From an uncultured Dehalococcoidales bacterium (GTDB lineage: Bacteria > Chloroflexota > Dehalococcoidia > Dehalococcoidales > UBA3254): a stretch of DNA of 64,000 nucleotides. Position numbers and translations under genes: made by a program. Below the pieces are notes generated by a model, which saw only the letters and a list, made by a program, of their open reading frames with translations, searched no databases and was not told where the DNA came from. Position 1 is the first letter of the stretch, and each line of letters begins with the position of its first letter. Positions 3,427-62,083 of this stretch are shown piece by piece. The stretch covers positions 3,830 to 67,829 of the forward strand of contig CAYLRY010000001.1 in the NCBI GenBank assembly GCA_964386535.1. The letters are read 5' to 3'.

Positions 3427-4636
3427 AACCTTGATTATCCTGACCAGTGAGCTTAAGGGGACCTTAAAACGCAAGGGCTTTATGATCACTACCCTGGCCT
3501 TACCGGTTTTGGGTCTTCTGATAATGCTGATATTTAACGTGGTGACAAATAACATTCAGCCGTCATCTGAAGCTGAAAATATTCGAATAGGCTACGTTGA
3601 CCAGGCAGGCATCTTCAGTCAATATACTCAGCAGGGCGATATTCAGCTTGTTCCTTACACTTCTGCTGAACAGGCCACTGCCGGTTTGCTGGCAAACGAG
3701 ATCAGGGAATATTTCGTAATTCCAAAAGACTATATAGCTTCAGGGCTGGTTTTCAGGTATTCGTTGAATACCTCTCTGGAGCCTCCGGCAAATTTTACAC
3801 GAGCTACCAAGGACTTCTTAATAAGCAATTTGGTCCATGATAAGGTCAGTCCCGACATAATGGCCCGGCTCCAGGCCCCCCTGGCAGTATCCAGCATTGT
3901 GCTGGACCGGAGCGGTCAAATTGATGAAGGCCAGAACGGCTGGGGCGCCTGGGTGATTTCGTACCTTTTCGGGCTGCTTCTGGTGATGTCCATCTTTACC
4001 GTGTCCGGATATCTTCTGCAAGGCCTGAGCGAAGAGAAAGAAAACCGGGTAATGGAGATATTACTTTCATCGGTCTCCACGCGACAATTAATCACAGGCA
4101 AGGTGCTGGGACTGGGCGCCGCGGGTCTTATACAGATGATATTCTGGTTATTCTCGGCCTGGGGACTGCTGTCTCTGGCTTCAAGTAGTATCGGCGGAAT
4201 TTTTAGCTCCATGCAGTTCCCGGTAAGCGTGATTGCATTGAGCCTGGTCTATTTCATACTGGGCTACTTCCTTTTTGCCATTTTGCTGGCTGGTATCGGC
4301 GCCATAGTGCCAACAGTCAGGGACGGCCAGCAGCTTTCCGTGATGGTCACTCTTTTAGGCTCTATCCCCTTCTTTATGATGACTTTTATTATTGAGAATG
4401 GCGATCATCTTCTGAATATAATATTGACCCTTTTCCCGCTTACTGCTCCTCTTACGGTCATGATGCGTATCAATGCAGGGATTCCCGTCTGGGAACTGGC
4501 CACCAGTGTGATATTAATGATATTAAGTATTACAGGCAGCTTGTATATTGTTTCCAGGCTTTTCAGAACGTATTTATTGATGTACGGTAAGACGCCGGGT
4601 TTAAAGGCGCTGGTAAGGAGCCTGCGGCAGTCATGA
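3419..4636 (+). CDS. ABC-2 family transporter permease (NatB-like)
   Basis: N-terminal TM, a large extracytoplasmic loop, then about 5 C-terminal TMs. The ATG at 3419 overlaps the stop of the ATPase gene (ATGAATAA), which suggests coupling. Confidence 0.8.
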   Translation: MNKTLIILTSELKGTLKRKGFMITTLALPVLGLLIMLIFNVVTNNIQPSSEAENIRIGYVDQAGIFSQYTQQGDIQLVPYTSAEQATAGLLANEIREYFVIPKDYIASGLVFRYSLNTSLEPPANFTRATKDFLISNLVHDKVSPDIMARLQAPLAVSSIVLDRSGQIDEGQNGWGAWVISYLFGLLLVMSIFTVSGYLLQGLSEEKENRVMEILLSSVSTRQLITGKVLGLGAAGLIQMIFWLFSAWGLLSLASSSIGGIFSSMQFPVSVIALSLVYFILGYFLFAILLAGIGAIVPTVRDGQQLSVMVTLLGSIPFFMMTFIIENGDHLLNIILTLFPLTAPLTVMMRINAGIPVWELATSVILMILSITGSLYIVSRLFRTYLLMYGKTPGLKALVRSLRQS

Positions 4637-53081: not shown

Positions 53082-53120
53082 TTAACATTCTTTTAACATT
53101 GCGTTAAATATCTCTTAAAC
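53082..53120 (+). promoter_or_regulatory. Pho-box array A (upstream of pstS)
   Basis: TTAACA (53082), TTAACA (53093), TTAAAT (53104), TTAAAC (53115): four hexamers spaced exactly 11 bp apart. Confidence 0.7.
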
Positions 53121-53318
53121 ACAGTCTGTTATTCTGAATGTAGGCAAAAAGATCCCGGAGTAATGCAGTCTGTGAGAAAAGCAGGGACTGCTAACTTTTG
53201 GTGCCGGAATAGATGATGGAAAAAGAATAAAAGGCCTGATTTTACCTGCATCTGTTTGATATAACGGCTGATGTATTCACAAAACCGTATGGAATGACAT
53301 CCGGAGGGGCTTTAATCA

Positions 53319-54239
53319 GTGACTTTCAGATGTAAAAGGAAGCGGCCCGGCTTCCTGTCATACATGCTGATTATGATATTGCTGCTTTTAAGCGCCTGTG
53401 ATAATGCGCCGATTAAAACGTCTGTATCTGACGGCGCCAGATCATCTACCATCCCCATCCAGACTCAAAACCGGAACACAACTACAGCCACAATCCTGTC
53501 CGGTTCCATATCAGAAGTAGGTTCGACCACGGTTCAGCCTCTAGCTGAAAAACTGGCGGCAGCTTTTATGGCGCTCAATCCCAACGTTAAAGTGGATATC
53601 AAGGGTGGTGGTTCATCAGTAGGCATCAAGGCGGCTAATGACGGTACAGCAGATATCGGGGCTGCTTCCCGTGAGTTGAACAGCGCAGATCCCAGCCTGA
53701 TAAAATTTCTGCTGGCCCATGACGGGATTGCCATAATCGTAAATGCAGGTAATCCGGTAAACGGGCTAACCAAAGCACAGATTACCGAGATTTTTACAGG
53801 TAAAATAACTAACTGGAGCCAGGTGGGCGGACCTGATAAAAATATTCATGTGGCTGCCCGTGAGGAAGGCTCAGGTACGCGAACAGCTTTTCAGGAACTG
53901 GTGATGGGAAAAGATGCTGCCGGAGCAGACATAAATATCGTGAAAAGCGCAATCCTGCAAAACTCCAGCGGAGCCATTATGCAGGTAGTCAAATCTGACG
54001 TCCAGGCCATCAGCTTTGACTCCTTTGGATACCTGAATAGTTCTGTAAAAGCCCTGGCGATAGAGGGTATTGAGGCTACTGATGAAAATGCCAGGAGCGG
54101 CATATATCCGGTGGTCAGACCTCTTTATTTTCTAACTAAGAACCAGCCATCCGGAGCGGTTGAAGCATTTTTCAAATTCTGTGCCGGATCCGAGGCCCAA
54201 CAGATAATAACCAACGAGGGATACATATCTGTACAATAA
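53319..54239 (+). CDS. pstS: Phosphate ABC transporter substrate-binding lipoprotein
   Basis: Basic n-region plus lipobox LLSAC. GSTTV..L, AREEGSGTR and YP..RPLYF are PstS/PBP_like_2 motifs. GTG start with GGAGGGG upstream. Confidence 0.9.
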   Translation: MTFRCKRKRPGFLSYMLIMILLLLSACDNAPIKTSVSDGARSSTIPIQTQNRNTTTATILSGSISEVGSTTVQPLAEKLAAAFMALNPNVKVDIKGGGSSVGIKAANDGTADIGAASRELNSADPSLIKFLLAHDGIAIIVNAGNPVNGLTKAQITEIFTGKITNWSQVGGPDKNIHVAAREEGSGTRTAFQELVMGKDAAGADINIVKSAILQNSSGAIMQVVKSDVQAISFDSFGYLNSSVKALAIEGIEATDENARSGIYPVVRPLYFLTKNQPSGAVEAFFKFCAGSEAQQIITNEGYISVQ

Positions 54240-54255
54240 AAATCAAATAACCGGC

Positions 54256-55170
54256 ATGCCCCGGGAGGCTCTCGGCAATCTCCCTGCCGCCAGGGCTGTC
54301 AACAGGTCCCGCTATTTTTCTGACCGTGCGGCCAAAACCGGAGTGCTCATATGCGCCACATCCTCTTTTCTGGTTTTACTGGCTATTATTATATTTATCC
54401 TGCAACAGGGTTTGCCGGCCTTTTTCCAGGTGGGTCTCTTAGATTTTCTTTTTGGCATTAACTGGAGTCCCTCCAATAGCCAGTTCGGGGTGCTGCCCAT
54501 GATAGTTGGATCACTGGCAGTAACACTGGGCTCTATGATTCTGGCGGTGCCTCTGGGAATCGCCTGCGCCATCCTGCTGGCGGAAGTGGCGCCCGCGGGT
54601 GTAAGACAGGTGTTAAGACCGGCAGTGGAGCTTTTGGTAGGGATTCCTTCCGTGATATACGGGCTGGTGGGCATAGGGGTGATTGTACCGGCAGTACGCC
54701 AGATAGGAGGAACCGGATACAGCATTGCTGCAGCCTGCATAGTGTTGATGGCCATGGTTCTACCCACTATTACCAGCATCAGTGAAGACAGCTTAAGGGC
54801 GGTCCCGCGGAAGTATAAGGAAGGTTCTCTGGCCATGGGAGCCACGCAATGGCAGACTATATGGCATGTTCTGATTCCCGCTGCCCGGTCAGGAATCGGG
54901 GCGGGTATAATTTTAGGAATAGGACGCGCCATAGGAGAAACCATGGCCATGATCATGGTAATAGGTAATGCGGTGATGTTCCCCACCTCTCTGCTGGACC
55001 CGGCACGGACTCTAACAGGTAACATCGCAGTAGAGATACAGTATGCCAGCGGGGTCCATGAAAGCGCCCTGTTTGCTACCGCAGTGGTTTTGCTGGCTTT
55101 TATCATCATCCTGAATTACTTCGCAGTAATTATTTTTAAGAGAGACATCAGTGGCCAGAGTAAATCCTAA
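54256..55170 (+). CDS. pstC: Phosphate ABC transporter permease PstC
   Basis: Six-TM permease with an EAA-like loop (..SEDSLRAVP...KEGS.A.GAT.WQ). Confidence 0.9.
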   Translation: MPREALGNLPAARAVNRSRYFSDRAAKTGVLICATSSFLVLLAIIIFILQQGLPAFFQVGLLDFLFGINWSPSNSQFGVLPMIVGSLAVTLGSMILAVPLGIACAILLAEVAPAGVRQVLRPAVELLVGIPSVIYGLVGIGVIVPAVRQIGGTGYSIAAACIVLMAMVLPTITSISEDSLRAVPRKYKEGSLAMGATQWQTIWHVLIPAARSGIGAGIILGIGRAIGETMAMIMVIGNAVMFPTSLLDPARTLTGNIAVEIQYASGVHESALFATAVVLLAFIIILNYFAVIIFKRDISGQSKS

Positions 55171-56002
55171 AACCAAACAAAAAGCAGCCAATTTGATTAT
55201 CTGGGCTGCCGGCGCTGTTACAGCCCTGATACTGATATTGATTATAGTCTATGTCCTGGTAAGGGGAATACCTTATATTACATGGGATTTCTTAATCACA
55301 GCGCCTAAGGGAGGTCTATCCGGAGAAGGGGGCATTTCCACCGCCATAGTGGCCACTGTTTACCTGATCTGCCTGACTATTGCTATTCTGATCATACCCG
55401 GCATCGGCACAGCTATCTGGCTGACTGAATATGCCAGGGACAACTGGCTGACAAAAGCAATCCGCTATGCCATTAACACGCTGGCAGGGGTTCCCTCCAT
55501 AGTCTTCGGACTCTTTGGTTTTGTTCTTTTTGTGACTGTATTACATTTTAATTTCTCCATTTTATCCGGAGCCCTGACGTTGGTCTGCCTGCTGCTGCCT
55601 ACGTTGATAAGCACTACTGAAGAGGCCATCCGGGCGGTACCTCAGTACCAGAGGGAAGCAGGGCTGGCTTTAGGCGCCACCAAATGGCAAACCATCTCCC
55701 ACGTTATCCTCCCGGCTGCTCTCCCCGGAATTGTAACCGGTATAATTCTCTGTATAGGCAGGGCCATCGGCGAGACAGCCTGTCTGTATGTTACCATGGG
55801 AGGCAGCGCTGCTATGCCTAACACTTTGCTTTCAGGCGGCAGGACGCTGGCACTGCATGTTTATTACCTGGCCACAGATACCAATGCATTTGATAAAGCC
55901 ATGGCTACTGCGGCCATATTGATCATTCTGATCATTATTATTAATACCTTTACCAACTGGCTATCTCAGCGCTTTCACGCCAGGCTGGTAGGAAGGATGT
56001 AA
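55151..56002 (+). CDS. pstA: Phosphate ABC transporter permease PstA
   Basis: ..TEEA.RAVP....[11 protein letters not shown]... There is a 20-nt overlap with pstC. Confidence 0.9.
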
Positions 56003-56003
56003 G

Positions 56004-56759
56004 ATGGATCCCAAGATTGAAACCAGGCAATTAAATCTGTATTACCGGAAAACTCTGGCGCTGAAGAAGATTGACATAAAGATACGTGAACATCAGATAA
56101 CAGCCATTATAGGGCCTTCAGGCTGCGGCAAGTCATCTCTGCTGCGCACCTTTGACCGGATGACGGACCTGACTCCCGGGGCAAGAGTGGAAGGCGAGGC
56201 GCTTTTGGACGGCAGTAATATCTTTGATCCGCTGGTAGACATAGTGGAATTGAGAAAAAGGGTGGGCATGGTCTTTCAGCAGCCTAATCCATTCCCCAAA
56301 TCAATTGCTGAAAATGTGGCTTTCGGACCCAGGATGCTGGGGTTAAATCATAAGAATAACCTGGAAGAGGTAATAGAAAAGAGCCTGCGCGCAGCAGCCC
56401 TCTGGGATGAGGTAAAAGATGATCTGAATAAATCCGGTCTGGCGCTATCCGGAGGACAGCAGCAGCGTTTGTGTATTGCCCGGGTGCTGGCCATAGAGCC
56501 GGAAGTGATTTTGATGGATGAACCCTGTTCGGCCCTGGATCCGATATCGACCCTGAAAATAGAGGAATTGATGGCTGACCTGAAAGAGAAGTATACTATC
56601 GTCATCGTGACGCACAATATGCAGCAGGCAGCGCGGGTTTCAGACTGGTCTGCTTTTATGTTACTGGGTGAAATGGTGGAATATGGTGCCACGCATGAAC
56701 TATTCAGCCGGCCAAAGGATAAGAGGACCGAAGATTATATAACGGGCCGTTTTGGCTAG
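56004..56759 (+). CDS. pstB: Phosphate ABC transporter ATP-binding protein PstB
   Basis: GPSGCGKS Walker [14 protein letters not shown] signature, and [10 protein letters not shown]. Confidence 0.95.
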
Positions 56760-56774
56760 AGGAGGGAAGTCAGG

Positions 56775-57440
56775 ATGCCCAGGAAGCTGTTTGATCAACA
56801 TTTACGGGAGCTTCAAGACCATGTGCTGGAGATGGGGAGCATGGTGGAAATAGCCTTGTACCGATCGATGGACGCCCTGAAAAACAGGGATCTGGATCTG
56901 GCCAGGCGGGTGATAGAGGAAGACCGTGAGATAGACCAGAAGAGGTATGAAATAGAGGAAGAATGTATTGACCTGATAGTAAGCCAGCAACCGCTGGCAG
57001 TGGACCTGAGGATCATCATAGCGGTATTGAATGTCATAGTGGACCTGGAGCGGATAGGGGATCATGCCGAAGGGACAGCCAAGATAGCGATAATGATAGG
57101 GGATGAACCGCCGTTAAAACCGCTGATAGATTTACCGAGGATGGCGGAGCTGACCGGTAGCATGTTAAAAAGGTCACTGCAGGCGTTTATACAACATGAT
57201 GCGGAGACGGCGCGGCATATATGTGCGGAAGATGATGTAATAGACAATTTATATGACCAGGTGTTCCGGGAACTGCTGGTGTTTATGGCAGAGGATCCCA
57301 AGACAATAACGCGGGCGACGCGGTTGATCTGGGTAGCGCACAATCTGGAGCGCAGCGCAGACCGGGTGACGAATATCAGTGAGCGGATTATTTACGTGGT
57401 TACGGGCAGCCGCAGCAGTATGATGGCCTCCAGGTATTAA
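56775..57440 (+). CDS. phoU: Phosphate signalling complex protein PhoU
   Basis: Duplicated PhoU repeats with E.D..ID and ..LERIGDHA / ..LER.ADR..NI motifs. Confidence 0.9.
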   Translation: MPRKLFDQHLRELQDHVLEMGSMVEIALYRSMDALKNRDLDLARRVIEEDREIDQKRYEIEEECIDLIVSQQPLAVDLRIIIAVLNVIVDLERIGDHAEGTAKIAIMIGDEPPLKPLIDLPRMAELTGSMLKRSLQAFIQHDAETARHICAEDDVIDNLYDQVFRELLVFMAEDPKTITRATRLIWVAHNLERSADRVTNISERIIYVVTGSRSSMMASRY

Positions 57441-57493
57441 GGTGAATATCTGCTGAATTATAAATAATCAAGCCTTATTCAGGGCAGGACAGG

Positions 57494-58198
57494 TTATAAA
57501 TCAAGTTTATAGCCGAAACCCCTTACAGTGACAAGATATCGTGGACTGGCTGGATCATTTTCTATTTTTTCCCTTAACCAGCGGATATGCACATCAACGG
57601 TTCGAGTATCGCCTGCAAAATCATAACCCCATACTTTTTCCAGGAGGGTTTCACGGCTAAAAACCTGCCCGTGATTTTTTGCCAGAAAGGTTATCAGATC
57701 AAATTCTTTCCGGCTCAATTCAATAACCTGATTATTGATAGTAACAATATGCCGGTTAAAGTCAACTTCTATAGGGCCATGTTTTAAGGTTTGATCCGTG
57801 TCTCTGTTAGTATTAAAGGCTTTACTGCCAACCATATTTAAACGTCTGAAAGAAGCATGGACCCTGGCCAGCAGTTCCCGCAAACTAAAAGGTTTGGTTA
57901 TGTAATCATCAGCTCCTATTTCCAGTCCGACTATTTTATCGATTTCTTCGGTACGAGCGGTCAGCATAATTATGGGAACAGACATTTCTTTTCTAAGGAT
58001 ACGGCAAACTTCAAGGCCGTTCATATGGGGTAAATTAATATCTAAAAGAATAAGATCCGGCTTTTCGGCCCTGGCACTTTCCAGGGCCTGTACTCCATTC
58101 AGTGCTGCGATAACACTATAACCGTCTTTGGTTAAGTTATATTTTAAAACCCCCTGTAAAGTCTCATCATCTTCCACTACCAGCACTTTACCCGGCAT
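57494..58198 (-). CDS. OmpR/PhoB-family response regulator (PhoP/PhoB-like)
   Basis: Receiver domain (VLVVEDD...DLILLD) plus a winged-helix trans_reg_C domain (..L..KEF.L......N.G.V.SRE.L...VWG........RTVDVHI..LR.K). Confidence 0.9.
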   Translation of the reverse strand: MPGKVLVVEDDETLQGVLKYNLTKDGYSVIAALNGVQALESARAEKPDLILLDINLPHMNGLEVCRILRKEMSVPIIMLTARTEEIDKIVGLEIGADDYITKPFSLRELLARVHASFRRLNMVGSKAFNTNRDTDQTLKHGPIEVDFNRHIVTINNQVIELSRKEFDLITFLAKNHGQVFSRETLLEKVWGYDFAGDTRTVDVHIRWLREKIENDPASPRYLVTVRGFGYKLDL

Positions 58199-58286
58199 TG
58201 ATCCACTCCCTTAGACGTACCCCCGTAATAGCTTTTTGTTAATAGCTGAAGACCAGTCTCCGAACTATTATCATATCACTCTAATA

Positions 58287-58325
58287 TTAACGGGAAATTA
58301 ACCATGCATTAAATCCAGGTTAAAT
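58287..58325 (+). promoter_or_regulatory. Pho-box array B
   Basis: TTAACG (58287), TTAACC (58298), TTAAAT (58309), TTAAAT (58320), spaced exactly 11 bp apart. The array lies ~90-130 nt upstream of the regulator start. Confidence 0.65.
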
Positions 58326-58376
58326 ATAAAAGATTACGGCAACCGCACTGATACCGGCTTCATTAATGACAGGCAA

Positions 58377-58437
58377 TTAACGAACAATTAATTAAGTTTT
58401 AACGAAATATTAACAGCAACATTATCAATCCTTAAAG
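58377..58437 (+). promoter_or_regulatory. Pho-box array C
   Basis: TTAACG (58377), TTAATT (58388), TTAACG (58399), TTAACA (58410), a degenerate ATTATC (58421), and TTAAAG (58432), all in 11-bp phase. The array lies ~100-160 nt upstream of the 58540 ORF. Confidence 0.65.
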
Positions 58438-58539
58438 ACAGGTTGATATGATCAAATCAGGAGAAAAGGAATCTAAAGCTTCCAGGGGAGTAATACATAA
58501 CAGCCGAACATTAAAAAACTGATAGGAGGAGGATTGCAA

Positions 58540-58743
58540 ATGGAAAACAACAGTGATATAGATTACCGGCAACAAGAGGTTAACAATCTGGAGACGGATG
58601 AGAACCAGGCTACTTTAAAAGGGAGGAAAAAGCGGTGGAAATTTCTGCTGGCATGGGTAAATGCTCTAGGTTCTTTAGACTGTGATGAATACACAGATTC
58701 TACCTATTATTATTGGAAGCACAAATATGAATTATACATATAA
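58540..58743 (+). CDS. Small hypothetical protein (67 aa)
   Basis: Strong RBS GGAGGAGG ~8 nt upstream of the ATG. Overlaps the start of the HAD gene by 17 nt. No family recognised. Confidence 0.4.
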   Translation: MENNSDIDYRQQEVNNLETDENQATLKGRKKRWKFLLAWVNALGSLDCDEYTDSTYYYWKHKYELYI

Positions 58744-59503
58744 ATATATCACACAATCGATAGCAAATAAAATCAAGCTGGTTATGACGGACGTGGATGA
58801 TACTATTACCTCAAACGATGGAAGCATCGGTGCTGCCGTGAAAGAGGCCATTAACCTCCTGGTAAAACAAAAAATAACTGTGGGGCTTATTTCCGGACGC
58901 AGCATGAAAAATTTGGAAAACTGTGCTGATAAGCTGGGTATTAACGGTCCTATTATTGCTGAAAACGGGGGCCTGGTAAAGCTTAATCCCCAGTCGAAAA
59001 CACATACTCTGGGCTGCCAGCAAGATGCTGTAAAGGCTCTGGACAAACTAAAATCACGGTTTGGTCCGGATATTCAAAGCGGGGAATGGAACACCGGAAG
59101 GGAGACAGACTTGGTGATATGCTGCGAAAAAGTACCCTTTCGGGAGATACAAAGACATATCGCAGAGGTGGATATTATCCGGACCAGCTATTTCCATGGT
59201 AACCGCTATACTCTGCACCTGGTTAGAAAAGGCATCAGTAAAGGTAATATTTTGAAGATGTTACTCAGCCGCTTGGATCATGGTGAAATAAATACCGGAA
59301 GTACGCTGGTGCTCGGTGACGGGCTGAATGATCTCTCCATGTTCCGTCTTTTTCACCATGGAGTCTCAATACCAAACTCCAATCAACCTGAAAAGCACCG
59401 AAAAATGATAATGGAGGCAGCCAGTTATCACAGCAGCGCCTCCGGCGGTGAAGGTTTTGCAGAAGTAGTTAATCATATCATAGATATGCGTTTGAACGCT
59501 TGA
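58727..59503 (+). CDS. HAD-IIB (Cof-type) phosphatase
   Basis: Motif I MTDVDDTIT (DxDxT), motif II ..SGR, and motif IV GDGLNDLSMF. The start is uncertain (58682-58727). Confidence 0.75.
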   Translation: MNYTYKYITQSIANKIKLVMTDVDDTITSNDGSIGAAVKEAINLLVKQKITVGLISGRSMKNLENCADKLGINGPIIAENGGLVKLNPQSKTHTLGCQQDAVKALDKLKSRFGPDIQSGEWNTGRETDLVICCEKVPFREIQRHIAEVDIIRTSYFHGNRYTLHLVRKGISKGNILKMLLSRLDHGEINTGSTLVLGDGLNDLSMFRLFHHGVSIPNSNQPEKHRKMIMEAASYHSSASGGEGFAEVVNHIIDMRLNA

Positions 59504-59537
59504 AAAGACTGACAACTGAGTTTCCCGAAAAATATAT

Positions 59538-59831
59538 ATGGTAATGAAGATGAAAAGGAGAAGGGAATTGTTTGAGCATAGAGATCCTTCACGAAGACGT
59601 ATCAGAACTTACGAACTTTCAATTGACAGCTTTAATTTTGATGAAGGAGAGGTAGTTTTCCCGGGACAAATAATCGGCCAAGAAGTAAAAACCGGTAGAA
59701 CCATCAAAGCTTTTTGCTTCTGCCAGATAGCTACGGCCTATTTTAACCCGATGAATAAAAGCTATTTGGTTATGATCTACTTGATAGATGGGGGTGAAGA
59801 AAAGAGGAAGAAAGAGCTGGAATTTATTTAG
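59538..59831 (+). CDS. Hypothetical small protein
   Basis: ORF only. Alternative TTG start at 59568 behind AAAGGAGAAGGGA. No family recognised. Confidence 0.35.
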   Translation: MVMKMKRRRELFEHRDPSRRRIRTYELSIDSFNFDEGEVVFPGQIIGQEVKTGRTIKAFCFCQIATAYFNPMNKSYLVMIYLIDGGEEKRKKELEFI

Positions 59832-59849
59832 AAGCTGTGGATTTGAATA

Positions 59850-60104
59850 ATGAGCACCAGAATATTCGAGGATACCCAGGGTAAGATCTGGATTGTTACT
59901 ATGTATGGTTCCAATATTGAAGTCAGTGGATGCAGAAACGTTAAACTGAGTTTATACCAGATCGCCATCAGTTGCGCTCTCAAACTGGGCATCACTCAAA
60001 CTAAAAACGGGTTTCCCATCGAGTCCGTCAAAGAACACAACCGAATCTGGAAAGTAATCTGGGAAAAAGGATATGAATTAACAGAAAATCCTAGAAAATC
60101 ATAG
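59850..60104 (+). CDS. Hypothetical small protein
   Basis: ORF only, with a weak RBS. Confidence 0.3.
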   Translation: MSTRIFEDTQGKIWIVTMYGSNIEVSGCRNVKLSLYQIAISCALKLGITQTKNGFPIESVKEHNRIWKVIWEKGYELTENPRKS

Positions 60105-60520
60105 AGATATTAATAATTATTAATCTTCAGTTAAAAACTTTACCTTCTAATCAGCCAATTTAAAAAACCATATGGTTTCATTTCCCTCCCCCCGAAAAAG
60201 GATACTGCACTCTGCAAGTTTACGGTACGTTTCCATGTAACCAAAATCCACTGTCAAATTGCCGCAAATGGATATGAAGTAACTGTACCAATCAGGTGAA
60301 AATGCGCAGGATCGGTTAGATTTATTTGATGGTAAAACGCAGGGAACTTTTAATATTGACTGTACTGCAAAAAGGTAGTATTTGAACGTTTTGGTCAGAA
60401 ATTTAGCCTCGGAAATTAGCATAAAACACAATTATAAGACCTTTTTGCACTTGAGCCAATATTGTCTTTTCTAGTCAATTCCAGGCTGTAATAATTTTGG
60501 CCTTTTTTGCGAATAAGGCC

Positions 60521-60559
60521 TTAACACCGTTTTAACAATAATTTATGCACAGCTTAAAG
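60521..60559 (+). promoter_or_regulatory. Pho-box array D (upstream of the dockerin-PstS gene)
   Basis: TTAACA (60521), TTAACA (60532), TTATGC (60543), TTAAAG (60554), spaced exactly 11 bp apart. Confidence 0.65.
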
Positions 60560-60883
60560 TCCTCATAATGTGCATATGCTAATATGGGCAATGGTGAAGG
60601 TTGACATCCATAGATCATCTACCCCAACAACTGAAGTATACATAAAGGTGCATAAAAGCAAAGGGAAGTCCTTAACGCTTCCGTCATCGTCCTTCAGACT
60701 TCCCCTGGCTCAGGTCGAACCCAAGCATTATCTAATTTTAACCCTGATACCCGCTGCAGTCAAGAAGCTTGGAGTGCACAATTACCGGAACGGGAGGGCG
60801 AGGAAAAGGAAAATAATCTTTTCAAATATGATTCAAGTCAGCAGAGCCGACATATTTATTGTGTAATAAAAGGAGGAGAATAA

Positions 60884-62083
60884 GTGGGTAAATTGTTATC
60901 CAGAATATTGGCGAAGAAATTCGTACTCACCGGTATTTTAACAGGTTTAATTTCAGCGGTAGTATTAGGTTCGACTCTGGTTTACGCGGGTTATGATACC
61001 CCAACATCCTTTCATTCTGATGCGCAACTAAGAATCTCCGGATCTACGACTTGCTGGCCCATGGTGAGATCCGCTCTGGGTATTGCAGATGCCGGAGGCT
61101 ATGGCACCAGCGGACCCTTCCAGGCTGCGTATGGAGCCTGCAAGGCTGAAGGATATGCCATCGGCTCAGACCAGGGCAAAGGTGATACCAATGGCACTTT
61201 AACCAGCGGAGTCAGCGTAAATGATGTTGGGATGTCTTCTTCTTCCAATTTTTCCGGCTTAACTAACATCGATGCTATACCTTTTGCTCGTGATGCTGTG
61301 TGCATCATCGTCAGTAACAATGTGTACAACGCCGGTTTACAAAGCCTTACCAAAGCGCAGGTAAAAGCTATTTTTGAGGGTTATAACGGAGACGGCACCG
61401 AAAATTCCAGCGGATATCAAACCTGGGATGATGTTCAAAGCGGGCTTCCCTCTGCCGGAATCAAGGTAGTCGCCAGAGAGACCAACTCCGGTACGCGCGG
61501 TTCCCTGATCGAAATGACCGGTATGCAAAAAGATAGTGAAGCTAGTGTTACCAGAGAAATGGCCACTGTGACTCACGGCGGCGTATCCAGACAGACGACT
61601 AGCGCTGCGATGGCTGTCACTGTTGGCCAGGCCGATAATCAGATCGGCTATGTCGGCCTGGACTACACGGCTGCTTTGGTGGGAGCTACCAGGATCAATA
61701 TAAAAGCAGATTCTAGCAGCCCGGCAGTATCCCCGACCGTACAAAATGTGACAACTGAGGTCTATCCGCTATCCCGCAAACTCTTTTTACTGAAAAATAA
61801 GAACGGCTCTCCGAACACGACCAACCGCGATAATTTTATTACTTTCATGCTGAGCAATGCAGGACAGAACATTGTTGAAGCCGAACATGATGTTCGGCTG
61901 CGTCCCCGGGAGGATGTGAGCGGCAACGGTACAATAAACGGTCAGGATGTGGGTTATATTGGTACAAAGTGGATGCAGACCGGCTCCCCCGGCTGGATAC
62001 CTGAGGATGTAGACCAGAATGGTACCGTCAACGGCCTGGATGTCGGTAAGATAGGCCTCTGGTGGATGCTCTCTTACAGCTAA
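60884..62083 (+). CDS. PstS-family (PBP_like_2) phosphate-binding protein with an N-terminal signal/anchor and a C-terminal dockerin-like module
   Basis: SGSTT, ARETNSGTRGS and YPLSRKLFLL align with the motifs of the canonical PstS at 53319. The C-terminus carries two EF-hand-like segments, DVSGNGTINGQDVGYI and DVDQNGTVNGLDVGKI. GTG start behind AAAGGAGGAG. Confidence 0.8.
   Translation: MGKLLSRILAKKFVLTGILTGLISAVVLGSTLVYAGYDTPTSFHSDAQLRISGSTTCWPMVRSALGIADAGGYGTSGPFQAAYGACKAEGYAIGSDQGKGDTNGTLTSGVSVNDVGMSSSSNFSGLTNIDAIPFARDAVCIIVSNNVYNAGLQSLTKAQVKAIFEGYNGDGTENSSGYQTWDDVQSGLPSAGIKVVARETNSGTRGSLIEMTGMQKDSEASVTREMATVTHGGVSRQTTSAAMAVTVGQADNQIGYVGLDYTAALVGATRINIKADSSSPAVSPTVQNVTTEVYPLSRKLFLLKNKNGSPNTTNRDNFITFMLSNAGQNIVEAEHDVRLRPREDVSGNGTINGQDVGYIGTKWMQTGSPGWIPEDVDQNGTVNGLDVGKIGLWWMLSYS

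Follow-up and report, generated by a model that had tools for sequence, protein, structure and literature searches.

The spacer between the response regulator gene and ORF67 probably contains two divergent Pho-activated promoters, whose operators would be two arrays of short boxes repeated in exact 11-bp steps. This spacer (58199-58533; 335 bp, 36% G+C) separates the diverging regulator gene on the minus strand from ORF67 on the plus strand; coordinates refer to the window, meaning the whole 64-kb stretch of DNA that we analyzed. According to this reading, which is drawn from comparative sequence analysis, array B (four boxes, with room for two regulator dimers) would act on the minus-strand promoter of an orphan PhoB-like regulator, and array C (six boxes) would act on a plus-strand promoter from which ORF67, the HAD phosphatase, ORF87, and, in all likelihood, ORF84 would be transcribed. 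Each predicted promoter would consist of 11-bp-phased TTAA-core boxes at the place of a -35 element, then 6 nt, and then an extended -10 element (TGATATGAT). Under phosphate limitation, a phosphorylated PhoB-family regulator would bind head-to-tail along one face of the DNA and recruit RNA polymerase, a model with precedent in E. coli PhoB and Synechocystis PhoB/SphR. Both transcripts would then be switched on together with pstSCAB-phoU, which follows array A, and with the PstS-like gene that follows array D. The features of the window that enter into the argument are:

53082-53135, plus strand: array A (TTAACA, TTAACA, TTAAAT, TTAAAC) with TGT TATTCT, upstream of pstSCAB-phoU
53319-57440, plus strand: pstS-pstC-pstA-pstB-phoU, adjoining the regulator gene and preceded by array A
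57494-58198, minus strand: OmpR/PhoB-family response regulator, 234 aa (Pfam Response_reg and Trans_reg_C)
58278 to 58270, minus strand: predicted extended -10 of the regulator promoter, TGA TATGAT (TGATATGAT), 6 nt past the proximal B box
58285-58325, minus strand: array B, predicted operator of the regulator promoter, four 11-bp-phased TTAA-core boxes
58377-58437, plus strand: array C, predicted operator of the plus-strand promoter, six 11-bp-phased boxes (from orientation score and conservation of the proximal cores)
58444-58452, plus strand: predicted extended -10 of the plus-strand promoter, TGA TATGAT (TGATATGAT), 6 nt past the proximal C box
58540-58743, plus strand: ORF67, first gene past the C promoter, with a strong ribosome-binding site (AGGAGGAGG)
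58727-59503, plus strand: HAD-IIB (Cof-type) phosphatase, 258 aa, DVDDT motif (family match)
59568-59831, plus strand: ORF87, encoding a conserved small protein; in orthologous loci its gene is the one that immediately follows the C-type promoter
59850-60104, plus strand: ORF84 (84 aa), possibly the last gene of the C transcription unit, judged by position
60521-60585, plus strand: array D with TGC TAATAT, upstream of the PstS-family gene
60884-62083, plus strand: PstS-family gene, 399 aa (TIGR02136 96 bits, below the cut-off)

Array B reads on the plus strand as TTAACG (58287), TTAACC (58298), TTAAAT (58309), and TTAAAT (58320), in exact 11-bp steps. Read toward the regulator gene, the boxes of the same array are TTAACC (58323 to 58318), TTAATG (58312 to 58307), TTAATT (58301 to 58296), and TTAATA (58290 to 58285). 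Array C comprises TTAACG (58377), TTAATT (58388), TTAACG (58399), TTAACA (58410), the degenerate ATTATC (58421), and TTAAAG (58432), again in exact 11-bp steps. The initial annotation had described B as four hexamers at 58287-58325 and C as six phased positions, one of them degenerate, at 58377-58437, and both descriptions can be read directly from the sequence. It had also counted four array loci within 7.5 kb, which agrees with the presence of arrays A and D; the latter reads TTAACA (60521), TTAACA (60532), TTATGC (60543), and TTAAAG (60554), followed by a degenerate ATAATG. The motif then proposed, TTAAC(A/G/C), was too narrow, fitting five of the ten boxes in B and C. The constant element is instead the palindromic TTAA core, found in nine of those ten boxes. 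A Pho box requires at least two direct-repeat units spaced at 11 bp, and arrays B and C hold four and six such units, respectively.

The phasing of arrays B and C is far beyond chance. TTAA occurs 405 times in the 64-kb window. Chains of at least three at a spacing of 11 bp were confined to arrays A (53082-53120), B, and C, with four units each. At the other periods from 6 to 24 bp the window held no chain of four TTAA, and the longest was a single chain of three at a period of 22 bp, which is 2 x 11. Among 300 Markov-1 simulations of the window, the mean number of chains with at least three TTAA at 11 bp was 0.03, and chains of at least four did not arise. For a natural background we used 1.06 Mb of unrelated response-regulator loci (L003-L082) obtained by scanning species-representative genomes with the regulator, where the matches were at most 53% identical and mostly from other phyla. 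This background contained three chains of at least three units, all of them in Chloroflexota loci.

Two orthologous loci, L083 and L084, allowed the spacer to be compared base by base. Their regulators are 76-77% identical to the one in the window, are likewise encoded without a kinase, and stand in the same divergent layout, with the gene opposite the regulator encoding an 86-aa homologue of ORF87. In a three-way alignment of the window with L083 and L084, the B cores were invariant at 16/16 positions and the three proximal C boxes at 12/12 core positions, including the degenerate ATTA; the three distal C boxes were invariant at 3/12 core positions, and the remaining spacer was 28% invariant. 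Because L083 and L084 are closely related, this footprint amounts to about two lineages. The degenerate box ATTATC (58421-58426) was kept as ATTACC in both orthologues, so this weak unit itself appears to be under selection. A patch in the interval between B and C (58326-58376), TACCGG-like and located at approximately 58352-58360, was also conserved in the orthologues, and a weak terminator-like hairpin was seen on the minus strand at 58347 to 58335. An Rfam search of 57400-61000 gave no matches; thus, no known RNA element accounts for the spacer or for the long leader past array D.

We scored the window with a weight matrix for an 11-mer, which was trained solely on seven arrays from other Dehalococcoidia loci, where they precede pstS/LMWPc genes, and was applied to sets of four units in 11-bp steps. 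Within the 64 kb, array A scored highest (36.0 bits), followed by D (24.3), C (16.1-16.6), and B (15.0 on the minus strand, 14.8 on the plus strand), and the top 12 matches all fell within these four arrays. The maximum in shuffled windows was 7.8 +/- 3.3 bits, with 16.5 the highest value in 100 simulations. By this score, arrays B and C fall below A and D, at values close to the highest ones of the null distribution; what sets them apart is chiefly the exact phasing of TTAA, together with conservation. The canonical Dehalococcoidia unit that we derived is (C/T)(C/T)TTAA(A/C)(C/A), with boxes often in the order TTAAC, TTAAC, TTAAA, TTAAA. The base preceding TTAA was A in 6/10 boxes of B and C, whereas in the canonical training boxes it was C or T in 28/32 and A in 0/32.

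The distance from the boxes to the -10 element was nearly fixed. Across the window and related loci, TAnnnT started exactly 9 nt past the proximal hexamer in 20/23 arrays and at any other offset in at most three, where in two of the 23 (array D, and the L083 array at 3686) the degenerate proximal box was chosen by us to fit. The layout in these 20 arrays was proximal box, 6 nt, usually TGn, and then TAnnnT. Arrays A and D share this geometry, D by way of its degenerate fifth box, which again was our choice. The predicted regulator promoter reads TTAATA ttagag TGA TATGAT on the minus strand (58290 to 58270), and the predicted plus-strand promoter reads TTAAAG acaggt TGA TATGAT (58432-58452). 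From these positions we infer that the regulator transcript would start near 58263, approximately 65 nt before the ATG at 58198, and that the plus-strand transcript would start near 58459, approximately 80 nt before the ATG at 58540. A consensus scan of 58199-58533 found no sigma-70 -35/-10 pair, as is expected of activator-dependent promoters. At both promoters 9 nt separate the hexamer from TATGAT, which matches the position of a Pho box some 10 bp upstream of the -10 element and in place of the -35 element.

Because TTAA is palindromic, the orientation of an array rests on the flanking bases. Array C scored 16.1-16.6 bits on the plus strand versus -8.2 on the minus strand, and the orthologous C arrays in L083 and L084 scored 26.8 and 23.8 bits toward the small ORF versus -0.2 and 3.8 in the other direction. 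Array B in the window scored almost equally both ways (14.8 bits plus, 15.0 minus). It could thus be argued that B and C are both plus-strand arrays forming one long operator for the plus-strand promoter, with the regulator gene controlled by reverse-oriented boxes or repressed; the plus-strand score of B is as good as its minus-strand score, and its plus-strand order of TTAACG, TTAACC, TTAAAT, TTAAAT is the canonical one of two TTAAC followed by two TTAAA. We consider this arrangement unlikely on several grounds. The plus side of B has no -10 element at the canonical distance (the sequence there is TACGGC), whereas a perfect TGATATGAT lies on the minus side. Arrays B and C are 51 bp apart and out of register (90 bp = 8 x 11 + 2). 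Moreover, the orthologous B arrays in L083 and L084 scored 31.0 and 32.9 bits toward the regulator gene versus 9.4 and 12.1 away from it, and TGtTAAGAT stands at the matching place, the canonical distance, after the array in both loci.

Given the minus-strand TGATATGAT and the scores of the orthologues, array B would serve the promoter of the regulator and array C the promoter of ORF67-HAD-ORF87-ORF84. We conclude from the comparison that the two arrays probably diverge, each facing the gene that it would serve. The initial annotation had all of the arrays reading on the plus strand, which is supported for C but not for B. As to the extent of the plus-strand unit, which we predict from the gene arrangement, ORF67 (no family match) overlaps the HAD gene by 17 nt, and we found no convincing terminator upstream of ORF84.

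The connection of these arrays to phosphate comes from the genes that they precede. Regulators 61-68% identical to that of the window are each followed by a Cache-HAMP-PAS-HisKA kinase (PhoR-like). We fetched six such regulator-kinase pairs, and five of them (the exception being the pair in L090) adjoin LMWPc-pstSCAB-phoU or PHO4-type transporter genes; in those five loci, TTAA arrays are found just upstream of pst, LMWPc, and neighboring genes. In loci from Anaerolineae and Caldilineaceae, arrays precede a PstS-family gene and a gene for a Na/Pi cotransporter. Nine other Chloroflexota loci carried arrays upstream of LMWPc-pstSCAB-phoU, pstS, PstS-family lipoprotein, or Na/Pi cotransporter genes, beside phoB-phoR-like pairs. 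The motif lies upstream of core phosphate-uptake genes both here (array A) and elsewhere (L085-L092, L009, and L014).

The regulator has a receiver domain and an OmpR-type winged helix (PF00072 and PF00486). Among solved structures it is closest to RegX3, which regulates phosphate responses in mycobacteria (PMC4415409). In an alignment of nine sequences the receiver residues D10, D11, D53, T80, and K102 were invariant, and the recognition helix and wing (GDTRTVDVHIRWLREKIE ... RGxGYK) matched those of the kinase-linked relatives, except that I205 was V or M in three. The DNA-reading residues are thus the same as in kinase-linked regulators beside boxed pst operons, save for one conservative helix position. 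The protein did not reach the PhoB equivalog models (TIGR02154, 230 bits versus a cut-off of 296; NF053854, 208 versus 270). The YycF, MtrA, and RpaB models scored it higher than the PhoB model did, yet below their own cut-offs, and NCBIfam assigned it to no equivalog. With no equivalog cut-off passed, sequence models do not place it in PhoB. Nor is it encoded with a cognate PhoR kinase: a tblastn search with a PhoR-like kinase found no histidine kinase in the 64 kb, and the orthologues in L083 and L084 likewise have none. The window also contains no second regulator gene. Its context is that of a Pho regulator, but we do not consider orthology to PhoB proven.

These results leave some room for a different signal, in which another OmpR-family regulator (e.g., WalR-, RpaB-, or MtrA-like) would bind the arrays and the link to phosphate would be incidental. 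The model scores just described fit such a proposal, as does the lack of a kinase in the window that could hint at the signal. We nevertheless judge it quite improbable, since the arrays precede pstS operons, a Na/Pi cotransporter gene, and PstS-family genes in ten independent loci and adjoin regulator-kinase pairs beside pst operons, and since the TTAA-core, 11-bp architecture is that of the Pho box defined by experiment in cyanobacteria. WalR recognizes repeats of TGTWAH, and the HLR1 repeats of RpaB recur every 10 bp; neither fits the arrays.

A Pho-type assignment also bears on which protein would bind. Since the regulator is an orphan and shares its recognition helix with kinase-linked relatives, the arrays could be bound by a PhoB paralogue encoded at another place in the genome. 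The candidates are thus the orphan next to the arrays, a paralogue that is linked to a kinase and has this recognition helix, or the two together. For the autoregulation first suggested, a Pho-type array, B, stands at the predicted promoter of the regulator; autoregulation in the strict sense is unproven, because no kinase lies in the 64 kb and a paralogue with the same helix could bind in its stead. The suggested Pho control of the ORF at 58540, the HAD phosphatase, and possibly the small ORFs downstream fared better. Pho-type matrix matches, the canonical -10 distance, and conservation in the orthologues make phosphate control of these genes and of the regulator reasonable to infer, on comparative grounds.

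We also considered whether the boxes repress, with the regulator at B and/or C occluding the promoters. PhoP-family proteins do repress at some promoters, such as B. subtilis tagA/tagD and some Streptomyces operators (reviewed in PMC4415409), and B and C match the matrix less well than A and D. Repression seems very unlikely to us, however, because the boxes lie upstream of the -10 element, end 9 nt before it, and replace the missing -35 element, which is the activation geometry seen at pstS here and in relatives; in addition, genes for a HAD phosphatase and for a Pho regulator are typically among those that are induced. Finally, the view that the arrays are a chance periodicity of an AT-rich spacer (36% G+C, TTAA being a common AT-rich word), or reflect intrinsic DNA curvature with no specific protein, is hardly credible given that 20,000 simulations at the spacer's composition yielded zero chains of four or more TTAA, that the cores are invariant in orthologues whose flanks have diverged, and that the distance to the -10 element is fixed.

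With the arrays taken as Pho-type activator sites, the boxed orphan regulators differ from their kinase-linked homologues. Five kinase-linked phoB-phoR operons (L085, L087, L089, L091, L092) had no array within 400 bp upstream (best four-unit score -5.1), whereas a full array was present at 3/3 orphan regulator genes (window, 58285-58325, 15 bits; L083, 2109-2147, 31 bits; L084, 1418-1456, 33 bits). This contrast suggests that the orphan is itself a predicted Pho target. We tentatively raise the possibility that the orphan is a phosphate-starvation-induced PhoB paralogue, acting as a second-tier Pho element and not as the primary Pho regulator. If so, it would be made only under starvation, and it could either amplify the response, being fed by cross-phosphorylation, or compete for the same boxes; the family of 86-87-aa proteins, with which the orphan is always divergently paired, would then be a new component of the Pho regulon. 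A regulator-kinase pair was found in the same sample (L090); its tetranucleotide correlation with the window was 0.90-0.93, which was likewise the value for an unrelated genome bin, and correlations within the window were 0.94-0.96. The contrast between boxed orphans and unboxed kinase-linked operons offers a small lead on circuit design and no new principle.

Comparison with known systems places the arrays nearest to the Pho box of cyanobacteria. In Synechocystis, the site bound by PhoB consists of 8-bp repeats (CTTAACCT), three or more in tandem and separated by 3-bp linkers; the TTAA core proved essential in gel-shift assays, where its mutation abolished binding (PMC1906773, PMC11126600). 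The cyanobacterial Pho box (SphR/PhoB) thus has the same 11-bp period, at least three tandem units, a TTAA core, and a location upstream of pst and phosphatase genes. Its unit CTTAACCT is almost the same word as the Dehalococcoidia unit (C/T)(C/T)TTAA(A/C)(C/A) and is the closest unit sequence among the systems compared. The Dehalococcoidia arrays differ in usually having four to six units in the order TTAAC, TTAAC, TTAAA, TTAAA and a strict TGnTAnnnT nine nt downstream; they also belong to another phylum (Chloroflexota, class Dehalococcoidia). Arrays B and C in particular depart from the pyrimidine-flanked cyanobacterial core through the A that precedes TTAA in most of their boxes (6/10).

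In E. coli, PhoB binds tandem 11-bp direct repeats head-to-tail approximately 10 bp upstream of the -10 element, replacing the -35 element (PMC1906773, PMC4415409). The arrays described here resemble these sites in their 11-bp units, in the replaced -35 element, and in a regulator gene with its own Pho box. The E. coli unit differs, however, being CTGTCAT (PMC4415409) with usually two units per box, in contrast to TTAA(A/C)(C/A) here. Furthermore, E. coli phoB is co-transcribed with phoR, whereas in our case the boxed regulator has no kinase gene and the kinase-linked homologues of relatives have no boxes. Streptomyces PhoP operators contain a variable number of 11-nt units of unequal conservation, and both simple and complex operators occur (PMC2275107, PMC4415409). 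The four-box array B and the six-box array C with its one conserved weak unit are similar in this respect, but the Streptomyces unit is GTTCACC and the genomes are G+C-rich.

The PhoP boxes of B. subtilis are direct repeats of TT(A/T/C)ACA approximately 11 bp apart; an activated promoter has at least four of them, located on the coding strand and just upstream of the -10 element, and phoPR is autoregulated. TTAACA-type hexamers at approximately 11 bp recur in our arrays, and the PhoR-like kinases of relatives share the Cache-HAMP-PAS-HisKA layout. The differences are that TTAA is invariant here rather than TT-ACA, that the spacing is rigid, and that phoU is present, a gene absent in B. subtilis (PMC4415409).

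We found no description in the literature of a Pho box in Dehalococcoidia or Chloroflexi. Arrays B and C are, on our reading, ordinary Pho regulation in an unstudied lineage; protein searches assigned the organism to Dehalococcoidia, and runs SRR10178537 and SRR10178538 contain the sequence. The arrays contribute a concrete operator model for the largely uncultured Dehalococcoidia, namely four to six units of (C/T)(C/T)TTAA(A/C)(C/A) at an 11-bp period, followed after 6 nt by TGn and TAnnnT, and this model may be used for predicting Pho regulons from metagenome-assembled genomes. The products that it singles out in the window are a HAD phosphatase of the cytoplasm, a second protein resembling PstS, and small proteins without an assigned function. 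It also suggests that the TTAA-core Pho box, experimentally defined in cyanobacteria, is shared by Chloroflexota.

Several further observations concern the genes around the arrays. Array D and its TGCTAATAT lie approximately 300 nt before the PstS-family gene at 60884, and within this stretch (60521-60883) the leader past array D holds only a doubtful 98-aa ORF with a GTG start (60570-60866). The encoded PstS-family protein (60884-62083) has a C-terminal tail with two repeats (DVSGNGTINGQDVGYIG / DVDQNGTVNGLDVGKIG) that resemble dockerin repeats on visual inspection; Pfam gave no dockerin match in this protein. A PstS-family gene also lies behind a boxed small ORF in L094, and we rejected it as an orthologue of the 399-aa protein of the window.

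The ORF87 family comprises proteins of 86-95 aa, with 8 members in 5.8 billion clusters, no Pfam match, and the invariant segments MFEHRDPS and ATAYFNPMN. Its members in the loci studied here are:

Window, 59568-59831: ORF87
L083, 1650-1910, minus strand: family member
L084, 958-1218, minus strand: family member
L094, 2142-2429: family member
L096, 472-750: family member

The family member stands directly behind a Pho-type array in L083, L084, and L096, and within a boxed gene cluster in L094. In the window it lies behind ORF67 and the HAD gene, two genes that have the look of an insertion into the ORF87 unit. A metagenome scan with an alignment of the 87-aa protein returned one locus, L093, which hardly differs from L084. 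In L083 (265-303) and L094 (943-981), a Pho-type array with a canonical TGnTAnnnT precedes a LOG-like / SLOG cluster-4 gene (PF03641, PF18306), and this gene may be an unexpected member of the Pho regulon. Further multi-box arrays of up to six or seven units were seen in L083 (3681-3743), L084 (537-610), and L094 (748-786), preceding small genes: a 109-aa ORF, an 82-aa ORF, and a DUF5752 gene. Pho-type promoters are densely clustered around the orphan regulator gene and the gene for the 87-aa protein.
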